Position numbers and translations under genes: made by a program. Below, in pieces: positions 6,201 to 59,981 of a stretch of DNA of 64,000 nucleotides. This stretch comes from Candidatus Latescibacterota bacterium. Its GTDB lineage: Bacteria; Latescibacterota; UBA2968. The notes beneath the pieces are model-generated. The model searched no databases. It had not been told where the DNA came from and saw nothing but the letters and a program-made list of their open reading frames with translations. The number at the start of each line of letters is the position of its first letter. The stretch's first letter is position 1. Where the stretch lies: positions 416,001 through 480,000 of the forward strand of contig OZ242010.1 in NCBI GenBank assembly GCA_965204745.1, given 5' to 3'.

Positions 6201-6886
6201 GTGGTGGTGGATGTAACGGATGCATGGGAGTAGCTAGTTGAGATACTTCCTGTGCCAAACTGGCCGACTAATCCAGACAGGTACGATTTGCCCGTTATTG
6301 TGCCGGTGGTGTAGCAGGCGACGATTGTGCCGGAATTCCCGCCTACTAGAATGCCGGATCTTCTTGATCCCGTAACATTGGCGTTGATGATGCCGAGGGT
6401 TTCGACGCGGGAGCCGGATCCAAATCGTTTGAACAGTCCGATATGGTTGGCGGAGCTACGGGCGATGAACAGGTTGTCGATAGTGTGGCTATTGCCCTTG
6501 AAATTGCCCGTGTAGGTACCACCTATGGGTAGCCATCCGGCGCCGCTGTTGTAGTAGGCGTCGCCGGAGTCTGTGCCGATGGTGCCGTCGCCGTCGGTGT
6601 CTAGGTCAATGTTGGCGGTGAGTTCGTAGCCGACGCAGGTAGTGAGGCAACCCATGCCTGTGGCGGCGTTGGGGAATACGGCGTTGTAGTTCGCAGTATC
6701 CGTAGCGGCTACGACCCCATCGCCGTTGAGGTCCCAGCGAATGGCGTTGAGTTGGGCGTGGCCGGACACCTCAATGTAGTCGTCGTTGTCCGTGTCGTAG
6801 TCGACGGTGGTTTGGGCAAAAGCAGACCCCGATGCCACCAGCATGCCCAGCGCGACCAGGGCCAACAAGTGAGCGTAGCGGGACAT
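281..6886 (-). CDS. Giant secreted adhesin-like protein (2201 aa): three GLUG-containing modules, Calx-beta/Ig-like repeats, two C-terminal dockerin-like repeats
   Basis: Signal peptide MSRYAHLLALVALGMLVASGSAFA after SD GAGGAG; three YDxDxDxxIE(V/I)...AQLxAxRxDLNGxG units; VGGLVG motifs; about ten T/V-rich repeats ending LTITDDD/E; duplicated LDVDGDGxVRLFSDIILxIRYV units. In-frame upstream start at 7072. Confidence 0.85.
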   Translation of the reverse strand: MSRYAHLLALVALGMLVASGSAFAQTTVDYDTDNDDYIEVSGHAQLNAIRWDLNGDGVVAATDTANYNAVFPNAATGMGCLTTCVGYELTANIDLDTDGDGTIGTDSGDAYYNSGAGWLPIGGTYTGNFKGNSHTIDNLFIARSSANHIGLFKRFGSGSRVETLGIINANVTGSRRSGILVGGNSGTIVACYTTGTITGKSYLSGLVGQFGTGSISTSYSHASVTSTTTASEIGGLAGEIWGDATIKNSYFAGTLNTSGNPGGLLGDEDGGSVSDSYWDSSKATGSIGKGSGQSTSNLQNPTGYTGIYANWNLDLDGNANTGDSQGRDDPWNFGTSSQYPVLKYVSPSVVEIDYDDDNDGLIDITTLAQLNAIRHDLNGNGDATHADYGAAFPGRDTSSSGRMGCPSGTCTGYELLNNLDFDENNDGAITQADTTYWNGGAGWAPIGSSNTSPYTATFEGNGKTISHLYINRYVNFSGFFASTDTTTHIRSLGLVNAVINTGQGTVGALVGLNKGRIAASYVTGSVTANTNVGGLVGAAQRGSYIVASYATASVVCNQSGPWSTGGGLVGANGPGATIASSYSTGSVTGACLHKHGLAENSGTVTDSYWDTQTSDIADDSDTVAPEGKLTADLQSVTSASGIYANWDDLTIDASGANNDDPWTFGTTNQYPALKFAGLDTTAQFATQPVHYDTDSDGLLEVSTLAQLHAMRWDLNGDGVVADSDAMTYNAAFPNGNLSASKGCPSTGCIGYELLNNLDFDENNDGAITQADATYWNGGAGWNPVGPYGGTFKGNNKTISHLFINRGSRHNTGLFHAVDGDVSGLGLLNVNVTGADRVGGLAGNQGGGGTISSCYVTGRVSGSRWGVGGLVGRSYRTSGTNRIVSSYALVSVRVPASVTSDGLAGGLVGWLTDQTEVVASYALGSVFAGHSSAVGGGLVGQIASGGSVTASYAIGRVTGAGTKGGLVGSSAGTVTDSHWDTSTSGQTSSAGGSGVVGKTTSDLLSPTTYGATANDTYYNWNANLDGQAGNDDPWTFGAMDQYPALKYAGMDTTVQFQFQPARVTLALTPSSISESGGMSTVTATLAHPLSAATTITVRPVAGAYTVGADTTITIAAGSTANATDTVVITAVNNTQDEPNRDVTVSVVAGNAQGAGSVTGATLTLEDDDPAPTATLAASPASISENGAVSTVTASLSRPSSAATTITVRPLTGAYTVGSDTTITIAAGDTINASDTVVITAVNNTQDAPNRDVTVPGVMSNTQGAGSVTGAALTLTDDDAAPDVTMVLSPASISENGAISTVTATLSHTSSAATTITVSASAVSPAVLGDYTLSTPATLTVAAGATTSTGTVTITTVDNSISSGNKTVTVSSTVGNSIGTGSVTDATLTIIDDEVAQVTLVLTPASITENAQISTITATLDRVATVATTVTVSATEVAPAVAGDFTLSTATTLTFAANVTTSTGAVTITSVNDTTDAPDKRVTVSATVAGGNGASLSSAVTLTITDDEAAPDVALTLSPASIAETGGVSTITATLSHRSSAITTITVRPVAGAYTVGSDSTITIAAGSTANATDTVEITAVDNATDAPNRDVTVSVVANNDQGAGSVTGTALTITDDDAAPDVTLMLSPASISEAGGVSTVSATLTHPSSAATTITVRPVANAYTVGSDSTITIAAGQMANATDTVALTAVDNDIDASDNAVMVQTAAVENDHGAGTVQAASLTITDDDEAAIEVSAMTTTTVRLHTTESGRAETFTVTLASEPTGNVALSVVSSDTTEGTVSPSVLTFSSTTWNTAQTVTVTGQDDAPANNVDGNQNYTVTLSVNQTDTQDTNYDALSPVSVYMINRDNDFGLDISTITGQATEAGGSATFTVALLTQPSAAVTISVTSQDPSEGRVEPAMLTFAPASYNTAQTVTVTGQDDTIDDGDVTWAVRLALSSGDANYDALMDEDVPVTTTDDEDAPTVTLVLMPSSISENAEVSTITATLSHPSSAITTITVSATPVSPATASDFTLSSADTLIIAATTTTSTGTVTITAADNDDRADEKTVSVSATANNAQGITAPAPVTLTLTDDETPSANLDVDGDGRVRLFSDIILVIRYVLFFREEALLRGNVIEPTATRKTAQEIEPYLDTLVGQNILDVDGDGDVRLFSDIILIIRYVLFFRNEALIRGNVIEPTATRTTAQAIEPYIRSLYPDSHFQ

Positions 6887-6903
6887 CGTATCAGACTCCT
6901 CTC

Positions 6904-6923
6904 GGGGGGGGGGGGGGGGGGGG
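6904..6923. repeat. G20/C20 homopolymer directly upstream of the adhesin SD
   Basis: 20 consecutive G on the + strand. Confidence 0.95.
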
Positions 6924-7157
6924 TACACTGTACTGATCATCCTAACAGACTGTTTTGCAATGAAATAGAAGCACACGCCAAGACGAGAATGGGCGATATG
7001 AACCCCTCTTTTCGCGGTGGGAACATAGCACCAAATGAGGTTCAAACAGCGGCTGAAAATGGCGGTGATCATTCTGAATCCTCCTTTGCAAAAGCTGTCG
7101 CACAAATTAGGCGCGGCTTTTCCTCCGCGCTCAAAATCGCAATGGTGAATGGGTAAA

Positions 7158-7186
7158 AAATTAAAAATTATGTTATTATTTGTCAA
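7158..7186 (-). promoter_or_regulatory. Sigma70-type promoter for the adhesin leader
   Basis: TTGACA-17 nt-TAATTT in an AT-rich stretch. Confidence 0.55.
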
Positions 7187-7210
7187 GTGGTAAAATGACG
7201 ATGGGAATTG

Positions 7211-7440
7211 GGACCTACCCCCTGGCCCCCTTCCTGCGAGGAAGGGGGAACTGTGAGCGGTTTTGCGAGGGGAATGGCGTAGAGGTTTTTTGGGGTTCAT
7301 AGCGTGATCTATTCGCTCAAAGCCATCAAAACAGCCAGGGATACAAACCTTCAAGAAAGCCATGCGCTCCCCCTTTCCTCGTAGGCACAGGCGTAGCCTA
7401 CAATGAGCGAAGCGAATAACGGGGGCCGGGGGGATAGGGC
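7211..7440. mobile_element. MITE/REP-like element, family A
   Basis: Ends GGACCTACCCCCTGGCCCCCTTCCTGCGAGGAAGGGGG and GGGGGCCGGGGGGATAGG; relatives at 46950-47140, 15628-15718 and 1-10. Confidence 0.7.
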
Positions 7441-53823: not shown

Positions 53824-53853
53824 AATAAAAGGCGTCTATCGGGCATGTGTCAA
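53824..53853 (-). promoter_or_regulatory. Possible promoter of the lipid cluster
   Basis: TTGACA then 17-18 nt to a weak TTTTAT/TTTATT. Confidence 0.35.
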
Positions 53854-53901
53854 CCCCTTTCTCGCACGGGGATAAGGAGCAAACCCTTGCCAAAAATGGG
53901 G

Positions 53902-53930
53902 TTGACAAAAAAAAGAGCAACTCCTATCTT
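53902..53930 (+). promoter_or_regulatory. Sigma70 promoter of ndk
   Basis: TTGACA-17 nt-TATCTT. Confidence 0.7.
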
Positions 53931-53981
53931 GTCCACTTCCAAGCGCGATACGCGCCGTATTTTCACGCGGATATAACGACT

Positions 53982-54392
53982 ATGGAACGCACCCTGCTCA
54001 TCGTCAAACCAGACGCGGTTGCAAAAAACGCCATCGGCGAAATCATCCGCCGATTGGAAGCCGAGAACTTTCGGATTGCCGAACTAAAAATGCTCCGCCT
54101 CACGCGAGACCAAGCCGCCGAGTTTTACGCGGTGCATCGCCACCGGCCCTTTTACGACGCCCTGCTCGATTTTATGACCTCCGGCCCTTGCGTGCCCATG
54201 GCCCTCGACCGCGAAAACGCCGTCTCATTCTTGCGCGAAACCATCGGCAGCACCGATCCCGCCGAAGCCGCCGAAGGCACGATCCGCAAAGACTTCGCCA
54301 CCGACATCCAAAACAACGCGGTCCACGCCTCGGACTCACTGGAAAACGCGGCTAGGGAAGTGGCGTTCTTTTTCGATAAATGTGAGGATTGA
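53982..54392 (+). CDS. ndk: Nucleoside diphosphate kinase
   Basis: ERTLLIVKPDA, NAVHASDS. Confidence 0.97.
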   Translation: MERTLLIVKPDAVAKNAIGEIIRRLEAENFRIAELKMLRLTRDQAAEFYAVHRHRPFYDALLDFMTSGPCVPMALDRENAVSFLRETIGSTDPAEAAEGTIRKDFATDIQNNAVHASDSLENAAREVAFFFDKCED

Positions 54393-54422
54393 CACCCTGT
54401 TCTTTTTTTTTGGAGAATTAAA

Positions 54423-56432
54423 ATGGCAATGACAACACAGAGCAAAACCTACCTCGACCGAGCTATCGCCGAGGGCCATGCCAAAATCACCGGCGAGGGT
54501 CGCGATGAGCGCGTTCACTATATCGACGCCGACCACTCCGAACGTTGGGCCGACCCAGAGGAGAAAGTCCGCGCCGAGTTGTGGGCGGAACTTATCTGCA
54601 AATACAAATACCCGCCGGAGTGCATCGGCTTTGAGGTCAGCGTTCCAAGACGGACGCCAAATGACCGTGCGGACCTGGTCATTTTCTCTGATAAAGAATT
54701 GAAAGAGCCTTATTTTGTTATCGAATGCAAACGTCCCGACCTGTCCGATGCTGCCTTTGATCAGGCCATTGAACAAGCCTGCGGCAACCGCGCTAGCTTG
54801 GGCGCGAATTACTGCGGTGCAATCGCCGGGCGAACCCGCCGCTTCTTGCGCTTCGACAAATTCCCATCCTTAGAGCGCGAACGCAACCATCTCTCCGACA
54901 TTCCCACGCGCTACGGCCAGCCACCTGTATGGCGTTTCCTGAAAAATCATCCGGAGAGGGACTTGACCGCTGTTCCCCGCGAAGAACTGCGTGCCGCCAT
55001 TCGCAAGTGCCATCAAACCCTTTGGGAAGGCGGACGCCGCAGTCCCATCGCAGCGTTTGGCGAATTTTCCAAACTGGTCTTTATCAAACACCGAGATGAG
55101 AAAAACTTGGATAGGGCAGACGGTCAACCTTACGCCTTCCAGCGTCGCGATGGCGAAACCGCCGAGGAACTCGCCTCGCGCATCGACCAACTCTACGACG
55201 CCGAGCAACGAAATGAACCGGATGTGTTCATTGATCGCATCGACATTGACCCTCCTATCATGGCGCAATGCGTGGAACACTTGGAGGACATTTCCCTTGA
55301 CCGCACGGAACTGGACACCAAAGGCGTCGCGTTTGAAGAATTTATGGGTAGCTTTTTCAAAGGCGATTTCGGGCAGTATTTCACGCCCCGCGAGTTGATT
55401 GCCTTCGCCGTTGCCGTGCTCGACCCAGAACGGACCGACATCATCCTCGATCCCGCCTGCGGTTCTGGCGGCTTCCTGCTCTACGCGCTCGACCATGTGC
55501 GCCGCAAAGCCGATGAGGTGCAAACGCCCGGTACGATCTCGCATTTTACCTACTGGCACGATTTTGCCGAAAAGAACCTGTTTGGGCTTGAAGTGAACGA
55601 CGAACTTGCCCGCGTCGCCAAGATGAACATGATCATCCACGACGATGGACATACCAATATTGTCGGTCACGACGCGCTGGACTTCCCAAAAAAAATTCAG
55701 GCAAAAAACAACGACCTTGCTGAGGGCAAGTTCAACCTCATTCTCACCAACCCACCTTTTGGCTCGATCATCAGACGTACGGAAAAAGGGGAAGGGTATC
55801 TGGATCAGTTCGAGCTACAGCAATACCTCGGCAAAAATTATCCCGATTCCACCAAAACAACCGGGAATGGGGCAAAAAGCGGCATCAAAGCTGTGAAAGC
55901 ACGCGCCAGTATCAAGACGGAAATTCTATTCTTGGAGCGTATCCACACTTTTCTCAAGCCCGGTGGTCGCGCCGCTGTGGTTTTGCCAGATGGCATTCTC
56001 ACCAACTCCTCGTTGCAAGGCGTGCGCCATTGGCTACTCAACCACTTTCAACTGCTGGCGGTAGTCAGCCTGCCACAATTCGCCTTTCAGCACTACGACG
56101 CGGGCGTGAAGGCGAGTATTGTCTTTCTCCGCCGCTTGGCTGATAACGAGACCGCCCCCGACGAACCTATCTTTATGGCTCTGGCTGAGAACATTGGATA
56201 CGACGCTACCGGACGCAAAACCTTCGATGTAACGGTTGAGGAGCAAACTTCCAGAAAAGAGAAGGTTGAACGACACAGTTGCGATCTGTTTGACTACCGC
56301 GTCACCTACGAGTGGCGGCGCACCGGTTCCGGCGAAGGCGACTGGAGCGAACGACATCGAGAAATTATCCCCGATACCGGCTTGGTCGCCCAATGGCAAG
56401 CCTTTCAGCGGGATCCCACTTCTTTTTTTTGA
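54423..56432 (+). CDS. Fused HsdR_N-type endonuclease and N6-adenine methyltransferase (RM subunit)
   Basis: PEEKVR, RADLV...IECK nuclease motif; GQYFTPR, DPACGSGGFL, NPPF. Confidence 0.9.
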   Translation: MAMTTQSKTYLDRAIAEGHAKITGEGRDERVHYIDADHSERWADPEEKVRAELWAELICKYKYPPECIGFEVSVPRRTPNDRADLVIFSDKELKEPYFVIECKRPDLSDAAFDQAIEQACGNRASLGANYCGAIAGRTRRFLRFDKFPSLERERNHLSDIPTRYGQPPVWRFLKNHPERDLTAVPREELRAAIRKCHQTLWEGGRRSPIAAFGEFSKLVFIKHRDEKNLDRADGQPYAFQRRDGETAEELASRIDQLYDAEQRNEPDVFIDRIDIDPPIMAQCVEHLEDISLDRTELDTKGVAFEEFMGSFFKGDFGQYFTPRELIAFAVAVLDPERTDIILDPACGSGGFLLYALDHVRRKADEVQTPGTISHFTYWHDFAEKNLFGLEVNDELARVAKMNMIIHDDGHTNIVGHDALDFPKKIQAKNNDLAEGKFNLILTNPPFGSIIRRTEKGEGYLDQFELQQYLGKNYPDSTKTTGNGAKSGIKAVKARASIKTEILFLERIHTFLKPGGRAAVVLPDGILTNSSLQGVRHWLLNHFQLLAVVSLPQFAFQHYDAGVKASIVFLRRLADNETAPDEPIFMALAENIGYDATGRKTFDVTVEEQTSRKEKVERHSCDLFDYRVTYEWRRTGSGEGDWSERHREIIPDTGLVAQWQAFQRDPTSFF

Positions 56433-56482
56433 AAAGCCCCGCTGAACTTGGCAAGGCGCAATGCTTTGCAGTAAAGCGGGGC
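56410..56482 (+). promoter_or_regulatory. Predicted -1 programmed ribosomal frameshift signal
   Basis: GGGA, heptamer T TTT TTT (56423-56429), stop TGA, 6-nt spacer, hairpin 56436-56482. Confidence 0.65.
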
Positions 56483-57814
56483 GAAACAGCCGATAGGCTT
56501 GATGCAAAGTTTCATGCTTTGCATGAAATTCTCAGTTCTCCTTTTCCATTGGTAGAGTTTGGGAGATTGGTATGTGCGGAGCCGGATTACGGTTTGAGTT
56601 CAAGAGCGGTGCCAAGGACATCAAATAAACAACCCCGGTATATTCGAATTACCGATTTTGGAGAGGACGGCATTGAACCTGATCACAAATTTGTGACCGC
56701 CGACCCCATTGTAGCGGGTTACAAACTCAATCGCGGTGACATTATTTTTTCCCGCACTGGTAGCGTTGGAAAGACCTACTTGCACGAAGATGTTAGCGAA
56801 CCTGCTGTTTTCGCTGGATATTGTATCCGATTTAAATTTCATATTTCAAAAGTGTTGCCGAAATTCGTTTATTGGTGGACGAAGACCCAAGCGTATGAAA
56901 GGTGGGTTACAGCCATTCACCGGCCTTCGGTACAGTCGAACATCAACAAGGCAGAATTCAAATCCTGTCAGATTCCACTACCTAAAGTTGAAGTTCAGAG
57001 CAAACTCGTGACGAAAATGAACGCGGCACGGGCAGAGCGAAGGGCAAAATTAGCGGAGGCCGATGCACTGCTGGCCGGGATTGACGATTTCCTGCTTGAT
57101 ACGCTGAACATTACGCCGCCACCTGAAGATCATCGTCGCGTGTTTGCTGTTCGTAGTCAAGTCGCCCGTAAGCGTTTCGACCCTTACTTTCATTCGCCTA
57201 ATTTTGCGCGAATGAAAAAAATGCTTTCACAGACACGGTGCAAACCATTGGGAGATATAGCGGCATTATCAAAAGAAACTTGGAGTCCTCGAGATCGCGA
57301 TCAGTTGACATTCCGGTATATTGAAATCAGCACAGTCAGTCCGCAGACAGGCGAAGCTCATTGGAACGATGTTTTAACGTCAGAAGCCCCAAGCCGAGCG
57401 CGAATGAAGGTTAAAGCAAACGACATCATCGTTAGCTTGACTCGCCCCCATCACGGTTCTATTGCTTACCTTGGTTCGGAGTTTGAAGGCTGTATCGCAT
57501 CCACGGGATTTGCCGTAATTCGCAATGTAGCAGAACACGTCCGACGCGATTACCTATGGTGCGTCTTGAGAGCGCAGTTTTGCCTTGATCAGATGCTCCA
57601 GCGGACAAGCGGCGGCAATTATCCCGCCATTATCCAATCAGAACTATTGAAAATCCTCGTACCCGTACCCGGCGAGAAAACTCAGAATCGTATCGCCTCC
57701 GAAGTTCGCTATCGCCGCGAAAATGCCCGTCGCCTGCGCGACGAGGCCGAAAACGGTTGGCAAGCGGCCAAGCGTTGGTTTGAGGAACAGTTGTTGGGGA
57801 GTACCACGCCATGA
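56429..57814 (+). CDS. hsdS: Two-TRD specificity subunit in the -1 frame of the RM gene
   Basis: RLDAKFH and RFDPYFH repeats, YIRITD, SRTGSVGK, PSRAR, STGFAV; no ATG with SD at its 5' end. Confidence 0.85.
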   Translation: MKSPAELGKAQCFAVKRGETADRLDAKFHALHEILSSPFPLVEFGRLVCAEPDYGLSSRAVPRTSNKQPRYIRITDFGEDGIEPDHKFVTADPIVAGYKLNRGDIIFSRTGSVGKTYLHEDVSEPAVFAGYCIRFKFHISKVLPKFVYWWTKTQAYERWVTAIHRPSVQSNINKAEFKSCQIPLPKVEVQSKLVTKMNAARAERRAKLAEADALLAGIDDFLLDTLNITPPPEDHRRVFAVRSQVARKRFDPYFHSPNFARMKKMLSQTRCKPLGDIAALSKETWSPRDRDQLTFRYIEISTVSPQTGEAHWNDVLTSEAPSRARMKVKANDIIVSLTRPHHGSIAYLGSEFEGCIASTGFAVIRNVAEHVRRDYLWCVLRAQFCLDQMLQRTSGGNYPAIIQSELLKILVPVPGEKTQNRIASEVRYRRENARRLRDEAENGWQAAKRWFEEQLLGSTTP

Positions 57815-58088
57815 GTTTTGAATTTCTCCTCACTTGTAGGGTAACGCCAGAGGCCGATATAAAGGAGGTACTAACCGATTCCCTTGCCGGTGCCTTAGAT
57901 GACCGAGATGAGTTTGACCAGGAAGTAATAAATGACCTGATACAACTGCGGCACGAGCGAATTAGAGACACTTCTCAACATAGAATAATCGGCTTCTCTG
58001 TTGAACTACCAGAAGACATTGAACCCGCTGAAACTATAATTGAAGACTTCATTGAGAATCTGTGCGACTCTGGTCATGGGTTTCACAT

Positions 58089-59273
58089 GGCGTTGTTGCA
58101 TAAATGTTGTCGTGGCTAAGTTCGTCCCTTTCCCGCGAAATTTAAGCCCTTCTTTCTATGGGATAGGACACGGGTTTCGCGATCCTCATCATGCGATTGA
58201 GCACCGCACATCCCAACCGTGCTTCCGTTTCTTGGTTCTTCTTTTTTCGTGCGCGCAACTGCCGCCCAATGAGTTGTTTGTAGCGGCCTATGTGGGTTTC
58301 AACGACCGAGCGACGATGATAGCCACTGGTGCGTTTCCACTGTCGGCGGCCTTGACGCCGGATGGCTCGGATGATTTCATCGCGGGCGAGGGGGGGTGCC
58401 TTCCTGTTTCCGTGTTGTTCAATTTTGGCATCATGGCGCGGGGGAATCAGAGGTCGGATGGGGGCTCCTTGTTTGGGGGCGGCGCATGTGTTGAAGACCT
58501 TGCGTTTGTCATAGCCGCCATCGGCGCCCAGCGTATGGACAGGGGCCGGGACTTGATCGAGCAAGGGGTTGACCTGCGAAGCGTCATCAACGCTTGCCGA
58601 GGTCAGGGTCTGTGCGACAATCTCCCCGGTGGCCTCATCGACGCCGATGTGCAATTTGCGCCAAGTCCGGCGCTTGCAAAAGCCGTGTTGACGCACCTTC
58701 CATTCGCCTTCGCCATACACTTTCAGGCCGGTAGAATCCACCACCAAGTGGATCGGCTCGTGACGGGATTGGACAGGTAAATCCACGTTCAAATCGCCCT
58801 GTCGCCGGCAGAGGGTCGTGTGATCGGGCACACGCAAATCCACCCCCATCAATGCCAGGATGGACTTGAGAAACCCCTCGGTTTGACGCAGGGGCAAGGC
58901 ATAGACCAAGCGCACCATCAATGCCGTTTGAATAGCCAAATCTGAAAAGGTGTTTTGCCGCCCCCGTTGCGTTGGCCCTTGATGGTACCAGTTCCGAAGG
59001 GCTTGCGGCGTGATCCAAAACGTCAGACTGCCCCGCTGCTTGAGACCGGCCTCGTAGGCCGCCCAGTTCCTAACCCGATAGACAGGCGCACAGCGCGGGC
59101 GACGCGGGCGACGCGGGGACTTGACGGCGGGTTTGGAAGCGGTTATCTTGGGCATGACAGGTTCCTGGTGAGAAAGGGTGAGTTGTTTTGGTGATCTATA
59201 TGCCCAATCTACGAAGGAGCCTGTCTTTTTGCAATCCCAACTTGCAGGAAATTGCTATTTATGCAACAACGCC
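58089..59273 (-). mobile_element. Complete IS5-family (IS903 group) element, 1185 bp
   Basis: 17-bp perfect TIR GGCGTTGTTGCATAAAT; 9-bp TSD GTTTCACAT at 58080-58088 and 59274-59282. Confidence 0.95.
58142..59155 (-). CDS. IS903-like DDE transposase
   Basis: NWAAYEAGLKQRGSLTFW, DSTGLKVYGEGEW, ADGGYD, YHRRSVVET. Confidence 0.95.
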   Translation of the reverse strand: MPKITASKPAVKSPRRPRRPRCAPVYRVRNWAAYEAGLKQRGSLTFWITPQALRNWYHQGPTQRGRQNTFSDLAIQTALMVRLVYALPLRQTEGFLKSILALMGVDLRVPDHTTLCRRQGDLNVDLPVQSRHEPIHLVVDSTGLKVYGEGEWKVRQHGFCKRRTWRKLHIGVDEATGEIVAQTLTSASVDDASQVNPLLDQVPAPVHTLGADGGYDKRKVFNTCAAPKQGAPIRPLIPPRHDAKIEQHGNRKAPPLARDEIIRAIRRQGRRQWKRTSGYHRRSVVETHIGRYKQLIGRQLRARKKKNQETEARLGCAVLNRMMRIAKPVSYPIERRA

Positions 59274-59981
59274 GTTTCACATAGTAAAATTCGAAGATCC
59301 GTTACTCAAGACCAAGCTGGCCGAGCGTGCCAAAGAAATCTTTGATCTGGAAATGAAGTTGCGCCGTGTATTGTCGATTATCTATTTACATGCTTACCAA
59401 AGTGAAGAGCCATATAACCTGCTACGAGATGAGACAACCAAGACAAGAACCCAAGGCTTGAAACCTCAACAGATGAAATCAGCAACTGAGAATCAGTTCT
59501 TTCATGTTACCTTCAGCCAATATATTCAGTTGAACCAGCGTCGAAAATTCAACGTAGATGACATCTTGGAGTTCGTCCGCGATGCTAAGAAATACAACGC
59601 TTTCCGTGTCAAAATTATCCGAGAACCGATTGAAAACACTGAGGATGCCGACTTGCTAGAAGATCTTAAAACAATTATGGATCCCATTGAGCAAATGCGA
59701 AACTGTGTGGCCCATAACCGCCAACCTTCCCAACGATTAACTGGGAACTACATCAATGCGTGTTCGGAATTGAAAGAACGGCTGGATCAATACTTGGAAC
59801 AATGGGAGATCCAGTAGTAATTTTTAGAAGGGCTTTCATCATACGCCCGTGTTTATGGATTGTGCTCGTTGCATTGTTGGGTGGTTGTAGCAACACTGCC
59901 GCCTACAATACCGTCTGACGCCACGGCGCGATATGCGCTTTTGTGGTTGGGGACTGACAACTGACAACTGACAACTGCCTC

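Follow-up and report, generated by a model that had tools for sequence, protein, structure and literature searches.

Results

An RM gene overlapped by a specificity frame in the -1 register

The DNA analyzed here, referred to as the window, comprises 64,000 nucleotides (nt) of contig OZ242010.1 from Candidatus Latescibacterota bacterium (GCA_965204745.1, positions 416,001–480,000), and all coordinates given below are those of the window. On its forward strand lies a structural gene (54423–56432) for the enzyme of a predicted restriction-modification (RM) system, and the 3' end of this gene is overlapped by a second open reading frame (ORF) for a specificity (S) part, which continues from it in the -1 frame (56429–57814). 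Inspection of this locus and of its relatives makes it likely that the system is a Type IIB-like (BcgI/AloI-like) one whose specificity part is made only by programmed -1 ribosomal frameshifting.

The RM gene encodes 669 amino acids, the predicted product of ribosomes that do not shift. Its N-terminal part contains a nuclease domain of the PD-(D/E)xK type (HSDR_N_2 at residues 45–132, E 1.7e-10) in which residues D84, E101, and K103 are invariant across four orthologues, and this is followed by a gamma-class N6-adenine methyltransferase (N6_Mtase at residues 298–595, E 1e-36) with the motif NPPF at 443–446. The gene ends with the codons TCT TTT TTT TGA. The S frame is in the -1 register relative to RM and is open from 56312 to its stop codon at 57812–57814. 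The codon that would be read after a -1 slip is TTG at 56429, followed by 460 further codons, and the resulting S part of 461 codons contains two target-recognition domains, detected as two stretches matching Methylase_S (E 1.8e-16). When the two halves of S were compared with each other, only a stretch shared by both pieces as they had been cut and a weak alignment with 23% identity were obtained, which say nothing on a repeat of the domain start. A fusion of RM with S would have 669 + 461 = 1130 amino acids. An original prediction, made from the letters of the DNA, had described the same end of the RM gene and the S part in the -1 frame, which were found where it had placed them, and the lengths that it gave for the two products, 669 and about 1130 amino acids, match the computed reading frames of these predicted proteins.

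The junction contains a run of eight T residues (56423–56430). Contigs from four runs belonging to four different studies also contained T8 and showed no insertion or deletion and few substitutions nearby, although in a comparison of contigs rare length variants would stay hidden. A relative of the same genus (89% protein identity) likewise possesses T8 followed by TGA. Since the run is unaltered in all of these contigs, T8 is not a slip of the assembly; a run of nine T, with which the original prediction had reckoned as evidence of a single fused gene, was not seen in them.

A slippery heptamer, a stop codon, and a hairpin at the junction

The -1 frameshift signal of E. coli dnaX comprises a heptamer of the form X_XXY_YYZ, which a short spacer separates from a stable stem-loop, and possibly also an upstream word resembling a Shine-Dalgarno (SD) sequence. 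At the end of the RM gene the heptamer, the spacer and the stem-loop can be recognized on the forward strand. The heptamer T_TTT_TTT (56423–56429) has the form X_XXY_YYZ in the RM frame, and immediately 3' of it follows the 0-frame stop codon TGA (56430–56432), which ends the product consisting of RM only. A spacer of 6 nt (56430–56435), whose length is kept in the related loci with the same arrangement, henceforth called the cassette, separates the heptamer from a hairpin of 47 nt (56436–56482) that is the putative stimulator. GGGA at 56410–56413, a possible SD-like upstream stimulator, is located 9 nt before the heptamer, where the original prediction had counted about 10. The layout had been likened to that of dnaX and of insertion sequences (IS), and heptamer, 6-nt spacer, stem-loop and a stop codon just past the slip site are indeed all present.

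The hairpin consists of an outer stem of 8 base pairs, in which GCCCCGCT (56436–56443) pairs with AGCGGGGC (56475–56482), a middle stem of 3, and an inner stem of 7 base pairs. It folds as originally drawn with an energy of -30.2 kcal/mol, compared to a mean of -17.2 kcal/mol (standard deviation 2.7) for shuffled sequences (z -4.73), and none of 200 shuffles was as stable. No Rfam family matching the cassette element was found; the single hit, Plastid-psbJ-4, obtained 20.7 bits versus a gathering threshold of 55.2 (E 0.41), was on the opposite strand and is attributed to chance. A scan of the genome of the window with the cassette pattern returned the site described here and one place opposite an ORF of 399 amino acids, and the latter is also attributed to chance.

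The layout recurs in distant bacteria

A scan of one genome per species yielded 483 related stretches, the best 80 of which were kept. Together with three close relatives and the window, this resulted in 83 rows that were examined, one locus (L062) having given no C-terminal match. In 67 of these 83 rows, corresponding to 65 distinct cassettes, an in-register T_TTT_TTC, T_TTT_TTA, or T_TTT_TTT is followed by a stop codon at +0 or +3, by a hairpin 6 nt further on, and by S in the -1 frame. According to the record titles, the loci derive from Chloroflexota, several classes of Proteobacteria, Cyanobacteria, Acidobacteria, Gemmatimonadota, Verrucomicrobiota, Planctomycetota, Ignavibacteria, Deinococcales, and others. 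Cultured carriers named there include Novosphingobium mangrovi HK4-1, Microcystis ichthyoblabe FBCC-A1114, Chlorogloea sp. CCALA 695, and the filamentous cyanobacterium ESFC-1. A search of 61 related genomes had yielded the three close relatives, each of which possesses an RM gene overlapping a -1 S ORF, and two of them contain only T6, reading CCT TTT TTC GTN TAA before the hairpin, so that X_XXY_YYZ is still in the RM frame. Such a recurrence of the layout in 65 distinct loci is far beyond chance. The conservation that the original prediction had suggested looking for among homologues, namely the Phe-Phe-stop ending, the -1 overlap, and a covarying hairpin, is thus encountered in 67 of 83 rows, with compensatory changes in the outer stem.

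The T heptamer is missing from 16 of the 83 rows. Two of these are in-frame fusions (L022 and L053, see below), L083 is a decayed second copy, L064 possesses the weakened form A_TTT_TTC, L085 was a spurious heptamer call, and the remaining 11 are distant (46–58% identity) or truncated at contig ends, some of them with a separate S gene. Starting from the relatives of one heptamer-less genome, a second clade was reached that is distinguished by an insertion of 170 amino acids in the methyltransferase. Its 20 distinct rows, 17 of them new, contain T_TTT_TTC or T_TTT_TTT, a stop codon at +3, and a hairpin of 41 nt. In the loci L091–L097, from candidate phyla and other distant relatives, no cassette is present and a separate S gene lies in the +1 frame; in L096 its ATG begins 1 nt after the RM stop codon. 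With these, three expression layouts are found in the family: separate genes, in-frame fusion, and frameshift.

At the protein level, a search of 5.8 billion proteins gave 3190 matches at E 1e-30 or better among 8000 candidates scored. Of the best 120 orthologues, 101 have 657–692 amino acids, 16 are shorter pieces, and three have 903–917 amino acids. Their usual C-termini are Pro-Phe-Phe-Val/Ala and Pro-Phe-Leu-Ala/Val, which correspond to the heptamer plus one codon. A tblastn search of a plasmid collection detected no close orthologue, the best identity being 34%.

Nucleotide-level selection on the heptamer

When the 65 distinct loci were aligned (alignment A2), the six T residues of the run (T13–T18) were found to be invariant in all of them. 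At its final position the heptamer carries C (53 loci), A (7), or T (5), and G does not occur there. The base X that precedes T6 is T in 65 of 65 loci, and there it constitutes the third letter of eight codons (CCT, CTT, TCT, CGT, GAT, AGT, GCT, and AAT) for seven amino acids. From this pattern it is evident that selection acts on the heptamer at the nucleotide level and not on the protein only. The stop codon is at +0 in the window and in L002/L021 and one codon further on in the other cassette loci. Upstream, AGGA or GGGA is present at -13 to -10 in 35 of the 65 distinct loci, where it overlaps conserved Lys/Arg-Asp codons.

A run of T residues might also act during transcription, RNA polymerase adding one U so that part of the messages would be fused in frame and read by ribosomes in the normal way. 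T8 is about the length at which slippage of the polymerase becomes plausible. The window and its same-genus relative possess such a run, to which the polymerase could add a U, and the T7 variants L120 and L121 show that a single added T indeed results in an in-frame gene; runs of seven U are moreover under-represented, possibly because of such slippage, according to a passage in PMC4066793. On the other hand, 60 of the 65 distinct loci contain only T6, which is then followed by C or A, the run is maintained in one fixed codon register, and a covarying hairpin at a fixed distance of 6 nt has no known role in this process, since it would not yet be transcribed while the run is being copied. Slippage on T8, which the original prediction had listed as an alternative, is therefore unlikely as a general mechanism.

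The outer stem of the hairpin covaries

In the 65 loci the hairpin, which begins 6 nt past the heptamer, is mostly exactly 47 nt long and has a median energy of -25.8 kcal/mol. Its first eight bases show unbroken pairing in 39 of 65 loci, 5–7 contiguous pairs in 17, and 2–4 pairs in 9. In the alignment of the 65 sequences, tested on the structure taken from one member, the window, 77.6% of the cells are paired versus 71.5% after shuffling, a value reached by 0 of 500 shuffles, and only 40–48% are paired when the partners are slid by 1–3 columns. The covariation score was 0.234 versus 0.149 after shuffling (again reached by 0 of 500), and sliding the partners by 1–3 columns reduced it to 0.07–0.11.

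Individual pairs illustrate this behavior. The pair 26:75 is GC in 47 loci and CG in 8, 30:71 is CG in 51 and UA in 5, 32:69 is CG in 39, AU in 7, and UA in 2, and 33:68 is UA in 27 and CG in 13. UA at 30:71 occurs in exactly the five loci in which the S frame encodes Gln instead of Arg, and the change in the other arm is a synonymous one in a Pro codon. In the same way, CG at 26:75 occurs in exactly the eight loci with Thr instead of Ser, and the change in the opposite arm is synonymous in a Gly codon. As non-synonymous changes in one arm are paired with synonymous changes in the other, protein selection alone does not explain these couplings, and it can be stated that the outer stem covaries among the relatives.

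No conserved start codon for S

If S were translated from a start of its own, such a start should be recognizable. However, in the part of the S frame that begins at position -45, or at the closest S-frame stop upstream, and extends to the 3' end of the hairpin, 21 of the 65 loci contain no ATG, GTG, or TTG, and in 20 loci a stop codon lying 3–24 nt before the heptamer closes the S frame. The GTG or ATG common at -30 results incidentally from RM's conserved Gln-Trp codons; in the window this is the ATG at 56393–56395, located 30 nt before the heptamer and derived from CAA TGG. The GTG at +48 encodes the Val of a conserved strand in the 3' half of the hairpin. An SD-like word is located beside just one of all candidate starts listed. 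There is thus no conserved S start codon in these sequences. The original prediction that S possesses neither an ATG nor a well-spaced SD sequence is correct only with respect to the latter, the in-frame ATG at 56393–56395 being present with no SD-like word in the 12 nt upstream. Its alternative of a coupled start at TTG loses its basis, as TTG at the slip site is present only in the window and in the same-genus relative.

The S-frame peptide encoded by the hairpin is itself conserved (Ser-Pro-Ala ... Cys-Phe-Ala-Val-Lys/Arg-Arg-Gly-Glu ... Arg-x-Asp) and aligns with the starts of both recognition domains of the single-chain relative P0003. It follows that the hairpin region must be translated in the S frame.

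These data bear on the idea that S is made alone, by non-canonical initiation or by termination and reinitiation, and that the hairpin only throttles translation of S or stabilizes the message. In its favor, other family members such as L096 possess a separate S gene, EcoKI's genes hsdM and hsdS, which overlap by 1 nt, are described as translationally coupled in a passage of PMC3510504, and the S frame in the window does contain TTG at 56429 and ATG at 56393. Besides the missing conserved start and the upstream stop codons, this idea leaves unexplained the invariant register of the heptamer and the third base preceding it, which is always T, and natural in-frame fusions show that a covalent RM-S is viable. 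Production of S on its own is therefore very unlikely. A -1 frameshift is strongly supported by the comparison, in that the heptamer, the downstream structure, and a -1 ORF without a conserved start codon occur together.

Natural in-frame fusions and variants of the T run

In L053 and L022 one T has been lost and RM reads straight into S. The residues at the junction of L053 are those predicted for the transframe product, and in both loci the outer stem has been lost, the equivalent 47 nt folding with -10.6 kcal/mol in L022 and -16.0 kcal/mol in L053. The in-frame forms near the family extend about 230 residues, that is, one recognition domain, past the junction; they comprise L022 (protein P0119, 903 amino acids), L053, P0105 (917 amino acids), P0136 (915 amino acids), and L127, the last one from the second clade with domain 1 and the hairpin deleted. 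These one-domain fusions fit the stoichiometry proposed below, because with one RM per domain no free RM is needed. Both domains are retained in three in-frame forms, namely P0003, L121, and L120/L129. P0003 (1210 amino acids) is in frame and colinear across the junction, and its DNA was not found among 81 relatives of genome G062, where the best match was 79% identical. In L121 (genome G135) and L120/L129 (genome G104, in which the gene is also broken near residue 420), the run is T7 and not T6, the hairpin is intact, the heptamer once more falls in register, and the -1 frame runs for 4–5 codons before it meets a stop. These T7 variants may have come about through errors of assembly, may be genuine, or may reflect a reversed, dnaX-like use of the signal. 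A Phe-Phe junction followed by the start of a domain is also present in distant single-chain relatives, and it is therefore probable that the split form descends from a fused ancestor. The natural in-frame fusions indicate that the covalent form RM-S is viable.

Variants differing by one T (L022 and L053 with one less, L120/L129 and L121 with one more), together with the Phe-Phe junction of the distant single-chain relatives, might suggest that the T run, as a hot spot, is prone to mutation and that the split gene is the phase-off state of a switch in the DNA, or a pseudogene of a fused RMS gene. Against this, the split form is conserved in 65 distinct loci and in 17 of the second clade, and 101 of the best 120 orthologues have the length of RM. 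Both ORFs stay open, with an S part of at least 430 codons in 48 of the 65 cassette loci, T6 is short for frequent slipped-strand changes, and the contigs of four studies contained no length variant, within the limit for rare variants noted above. A switch or decay at the DNA level is thus highly improbable, and frameshifting of the ribosome remains the reading adopted here.

A Type IIB-like system

No separate ATP-dependent HsdR is encoded among the neighbors of RM-S in the flanks contained in the window, and on the basis of domain content and the absence of HsdR nearby the system is classified as Type IIB-like. Among named NCBIfam models, those that score best with RM and S are mad2 (NF047738) and mad5 (NF047740), components of the methylation-associated defense system (MADS). 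The scores, however, were 303.6 bits versus a cut-off of 720 for mad2 and 82.4 versus 400 for mad5, no other mad genes are located nearby, and in PADLOC the generic Type I methyltransferase and specificity models outscored mad2 and mad5. With scores so far under the thresholds and without its partner genes, the system is not MADS.

Genomic neighborhood

The neighbors of RM-S are ndk (53847–54392), directly before the locus, two small uncharacterized genes, and a transposase gene. The first of the small genes, ORF3 (57811–58119, forward strand, 102 amino acids), overlaps the S stop codon with its start as ATGA, and the second, ORF4 (59188–59817, forward strand, 209 amino acids), is separated from it by a DDE transposase gene on the reverse strand (58142–59155; DDE_Tnp_1_5 and DDE_Tnp_1). 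ORF3 and ORF4 are conserved downstream of S in relatives, with tblastn matches in 14 and 16 other distinct loci, respectively, and in L066 their counterparts are adjacent (6428–6709 and 6710–7255), so that it looks as if an insertion sequence had split the operon. Neither of them matched a Pfam or NCBIfam family. For ORF4 weak leads point to HEPN (PADLOC model CARF_HEPN, E 0.0046; Atlas clusters at 0.92–0.94, some of which are HEPN). ORF3 and ORF4 may form an accessory module of the system. The G+C content is 0.47–0.56 across the RM-S locus (54000–58000) compared with 0.58–0.61 in the flanks, and this, together with the place between ndk and a transposase, is consistent with a horizontally acquired defense island. 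Elsewhere in the genome of the window (G000), 18 matches to the RM protein were detected, including several open frames of about 850 amino acids with 33–40% identity; the genome therefore carries many paralogous methyltransferase-fusion systems.

Discussion

A model for the expression of RM and RM-S

From the signal, its conservation and its covariation, we infer slippage of the ribosome, its efficiency, and the assembly of the products as follows. With the ribosome at T_TTT_TTT, two Phe codons would occupy the P and A sites and the GC-rich hairpin, 6 nt further on, would be placed at the mRNA entrance. In the absence of a slip, ribosomes would halt at TGA and release RM (669 amino acids), which possesses nuclease and methyltransferase and no DNA-recognition part. 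Those slipping back by one base would read through the hairpin into the S frame and give RM-S (1130 amino acids). One message would thus probably make bare enzyme and enzyme-recognition fusion in a set ratio, the efficiency of frameshifting determining the ratio RM:RM-S. As there are two recognition domains and one RM is expected per domain, the unit of the holoenzyme would consist of one RM-S and one free RM (2RM:1S).

BcgI works as 2RM:1S, as stated in the text of PMC4081073 that deals with Type IIB enzymes, and the need of BcgI-type enzymes for RM in excess over S, which the original prediction had put forward, agrees with this ratio. Like BcgI, CspCI, and BsaXI, as they are presented there, the system described here combines an RM containing an N-terminal PD-(D/E)xK nuclease and a gamma-class methyltransferase with a two-domain S, would need 2RM:1S, and has no separate ATP-driven R subunit nearby; it differs from them in that their S is separate, whereas here S has no start of its own and would be reached only by a change of frame at the end of RM. 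The frameshift product resembles the single-chain RMS enzymes of Type IIB, AloI, PpiI, CjeI, and TstI. These are made as fusions only, and the same source (PMC4081073) notes an unexplained 'imbalance' between their catalytic and specificity parts, whereas the cassette family is predicted to make free RM too.

An engineered precedent is the 'Type IMS' fusion of HsdM and HsdS of EcoKI, which was active in vivo but in vitro required the addition of free HsdM for cleavage (Roberts et al., 2012; PMC3510504). It is likewise a two-domain methyltransferase-specificity fusion in need of one more free methyltransferase in vitro, and the cassette would by analogy supply a mixture of RM and RM-S like the one that this fusion needs. 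The EcoKI fusion differs in being man-made, in having a separate HsdR, and in that free HsdM is supplied or present accidentally, whereas here the recoding signal would supply the free enzyme.

Relation to known frameshifts

The tau and gamma products of dnaX share their N-terminal part and enter the same complex in a fixed ratio. The RM-S cassette resembles dnaX in its heptamer, short spacer and stem-loop and in that one gene would give two proteins sharing their N-terminus. However, frameshifting in dnaX yields the short product, whereas in RM-S it would yield the long fusion, and the heptamer A_AAA_AAG of a replication factor contrasts with T_TTT_TTC/A/T of a defense enzyme. In the transposase orfAB of the IS3 family and in the G/GT tail chaperone of phages, a heptamer close to where the upstream ORF ends is the site of a -1 shift that yields a fusion with the downstream ORF. 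RM-S resembles these in that a -1 shift near the end of the upstream ORF would join the downstream ORF to it, but they are genes of mobile elements and phages, whereas RM-S is a cellular defense enzyme. To our knowledge, conserved -1 frameshifts in cellular, non-mobile genes of bacteria are few.

In the literature searched, no description of a frameshift from RM or M to S was found, although supplementary candidate lists of surveys (GeneTack and a heptamer survey) might include the family. The portions of the GeneTack paper (PMC3711429) and of a recoding review (PMC5009743) that were available contain no relevant passage on restriction, methylases, or methyltransferases. In a different system, a frameshift suspected in a fusion of C protein and restriction endonuclease was tested and none was seen (PMC3850674). 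Recoding mechanism and enzyme class are both known, and it is their combination that was not found in print.

Observations that weigh against this interpretation

Several observations count against the model proposed above. Both products, RM and RM-S, are predicted from sequence alone. In the genome of the window, ATG 56393 and TTG 56429 are possible minor starts of S, and the T8 run is one to which the polymerase could add a U, as discussed above. Regarding the hairpin, a simple rule (2–4 contiguous pairs) leaves about 10 of the 65 loci without pairing from its first base; some of them pair from the second base on and some possess a different, shorter local hairpin. RNAalifold, given the 65 sequences, recovered only six pairs, all in the outer stem, and its consensus energy was weak (-2.62 kcal/mol), because the inner hairpin varies in sequence and length and is not alignable. 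The counts obtained by shuffling are not probabilities, and the sequences compared are akin to each other and belong to a system that moves horizontally. With regard to stoichiometry, distant relatives (40–54% identity, 1172–1230 amino acids) are in-frame fusions with two domains, and free RM is therefore not an absolute need for the enzyme class. Moreover, the S part has fewer than 430 codons in 17 of the 65 loci (150–299 codons in eight, 300–429 in five, fewer than 150 in three, and cut by a contig end in one), so that the logic of two domains needing two RM does not fit every locus.

A wider proposal may be added, and we advance it tentatively and with more doubt than conviction. S might never be free in the family, frameshifting of about one half might build 2RM:1S and so answer the 'imbalance', and the cassette might perhaps work in two registers. 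In the latter case the T7 variants may make RM-S by default, with a -1 shift giving free RM as in dnaX, and one-base changes of the T run, if this holds true, would flip which product needs recoding without either being lost.

Implications

For genome annotation, the orthologues stand as 'type I M protein' or 'N-6 DNA methylase' of RM length in the protein collection searched, and an S part reached only by frameshifting would be overlooked or assigned a wrong start. Since it is compact and exists in many natural variants, the cassette of 78 nt, which spans 56411–56488 in the window, would lend itself as a model of U-rich slippery sites in bacteria. The system also opens to experiment the standing question of how two catalytic parts are provided for two recognition domains in single-chain Type IIB and in fused Type I enzymes. 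If the model is correct, a very common frameshift, present in many phyla, operates in a defense enzyme, and the family would possess a third way to express RM-S, beside separate genes and in-frame fusion.

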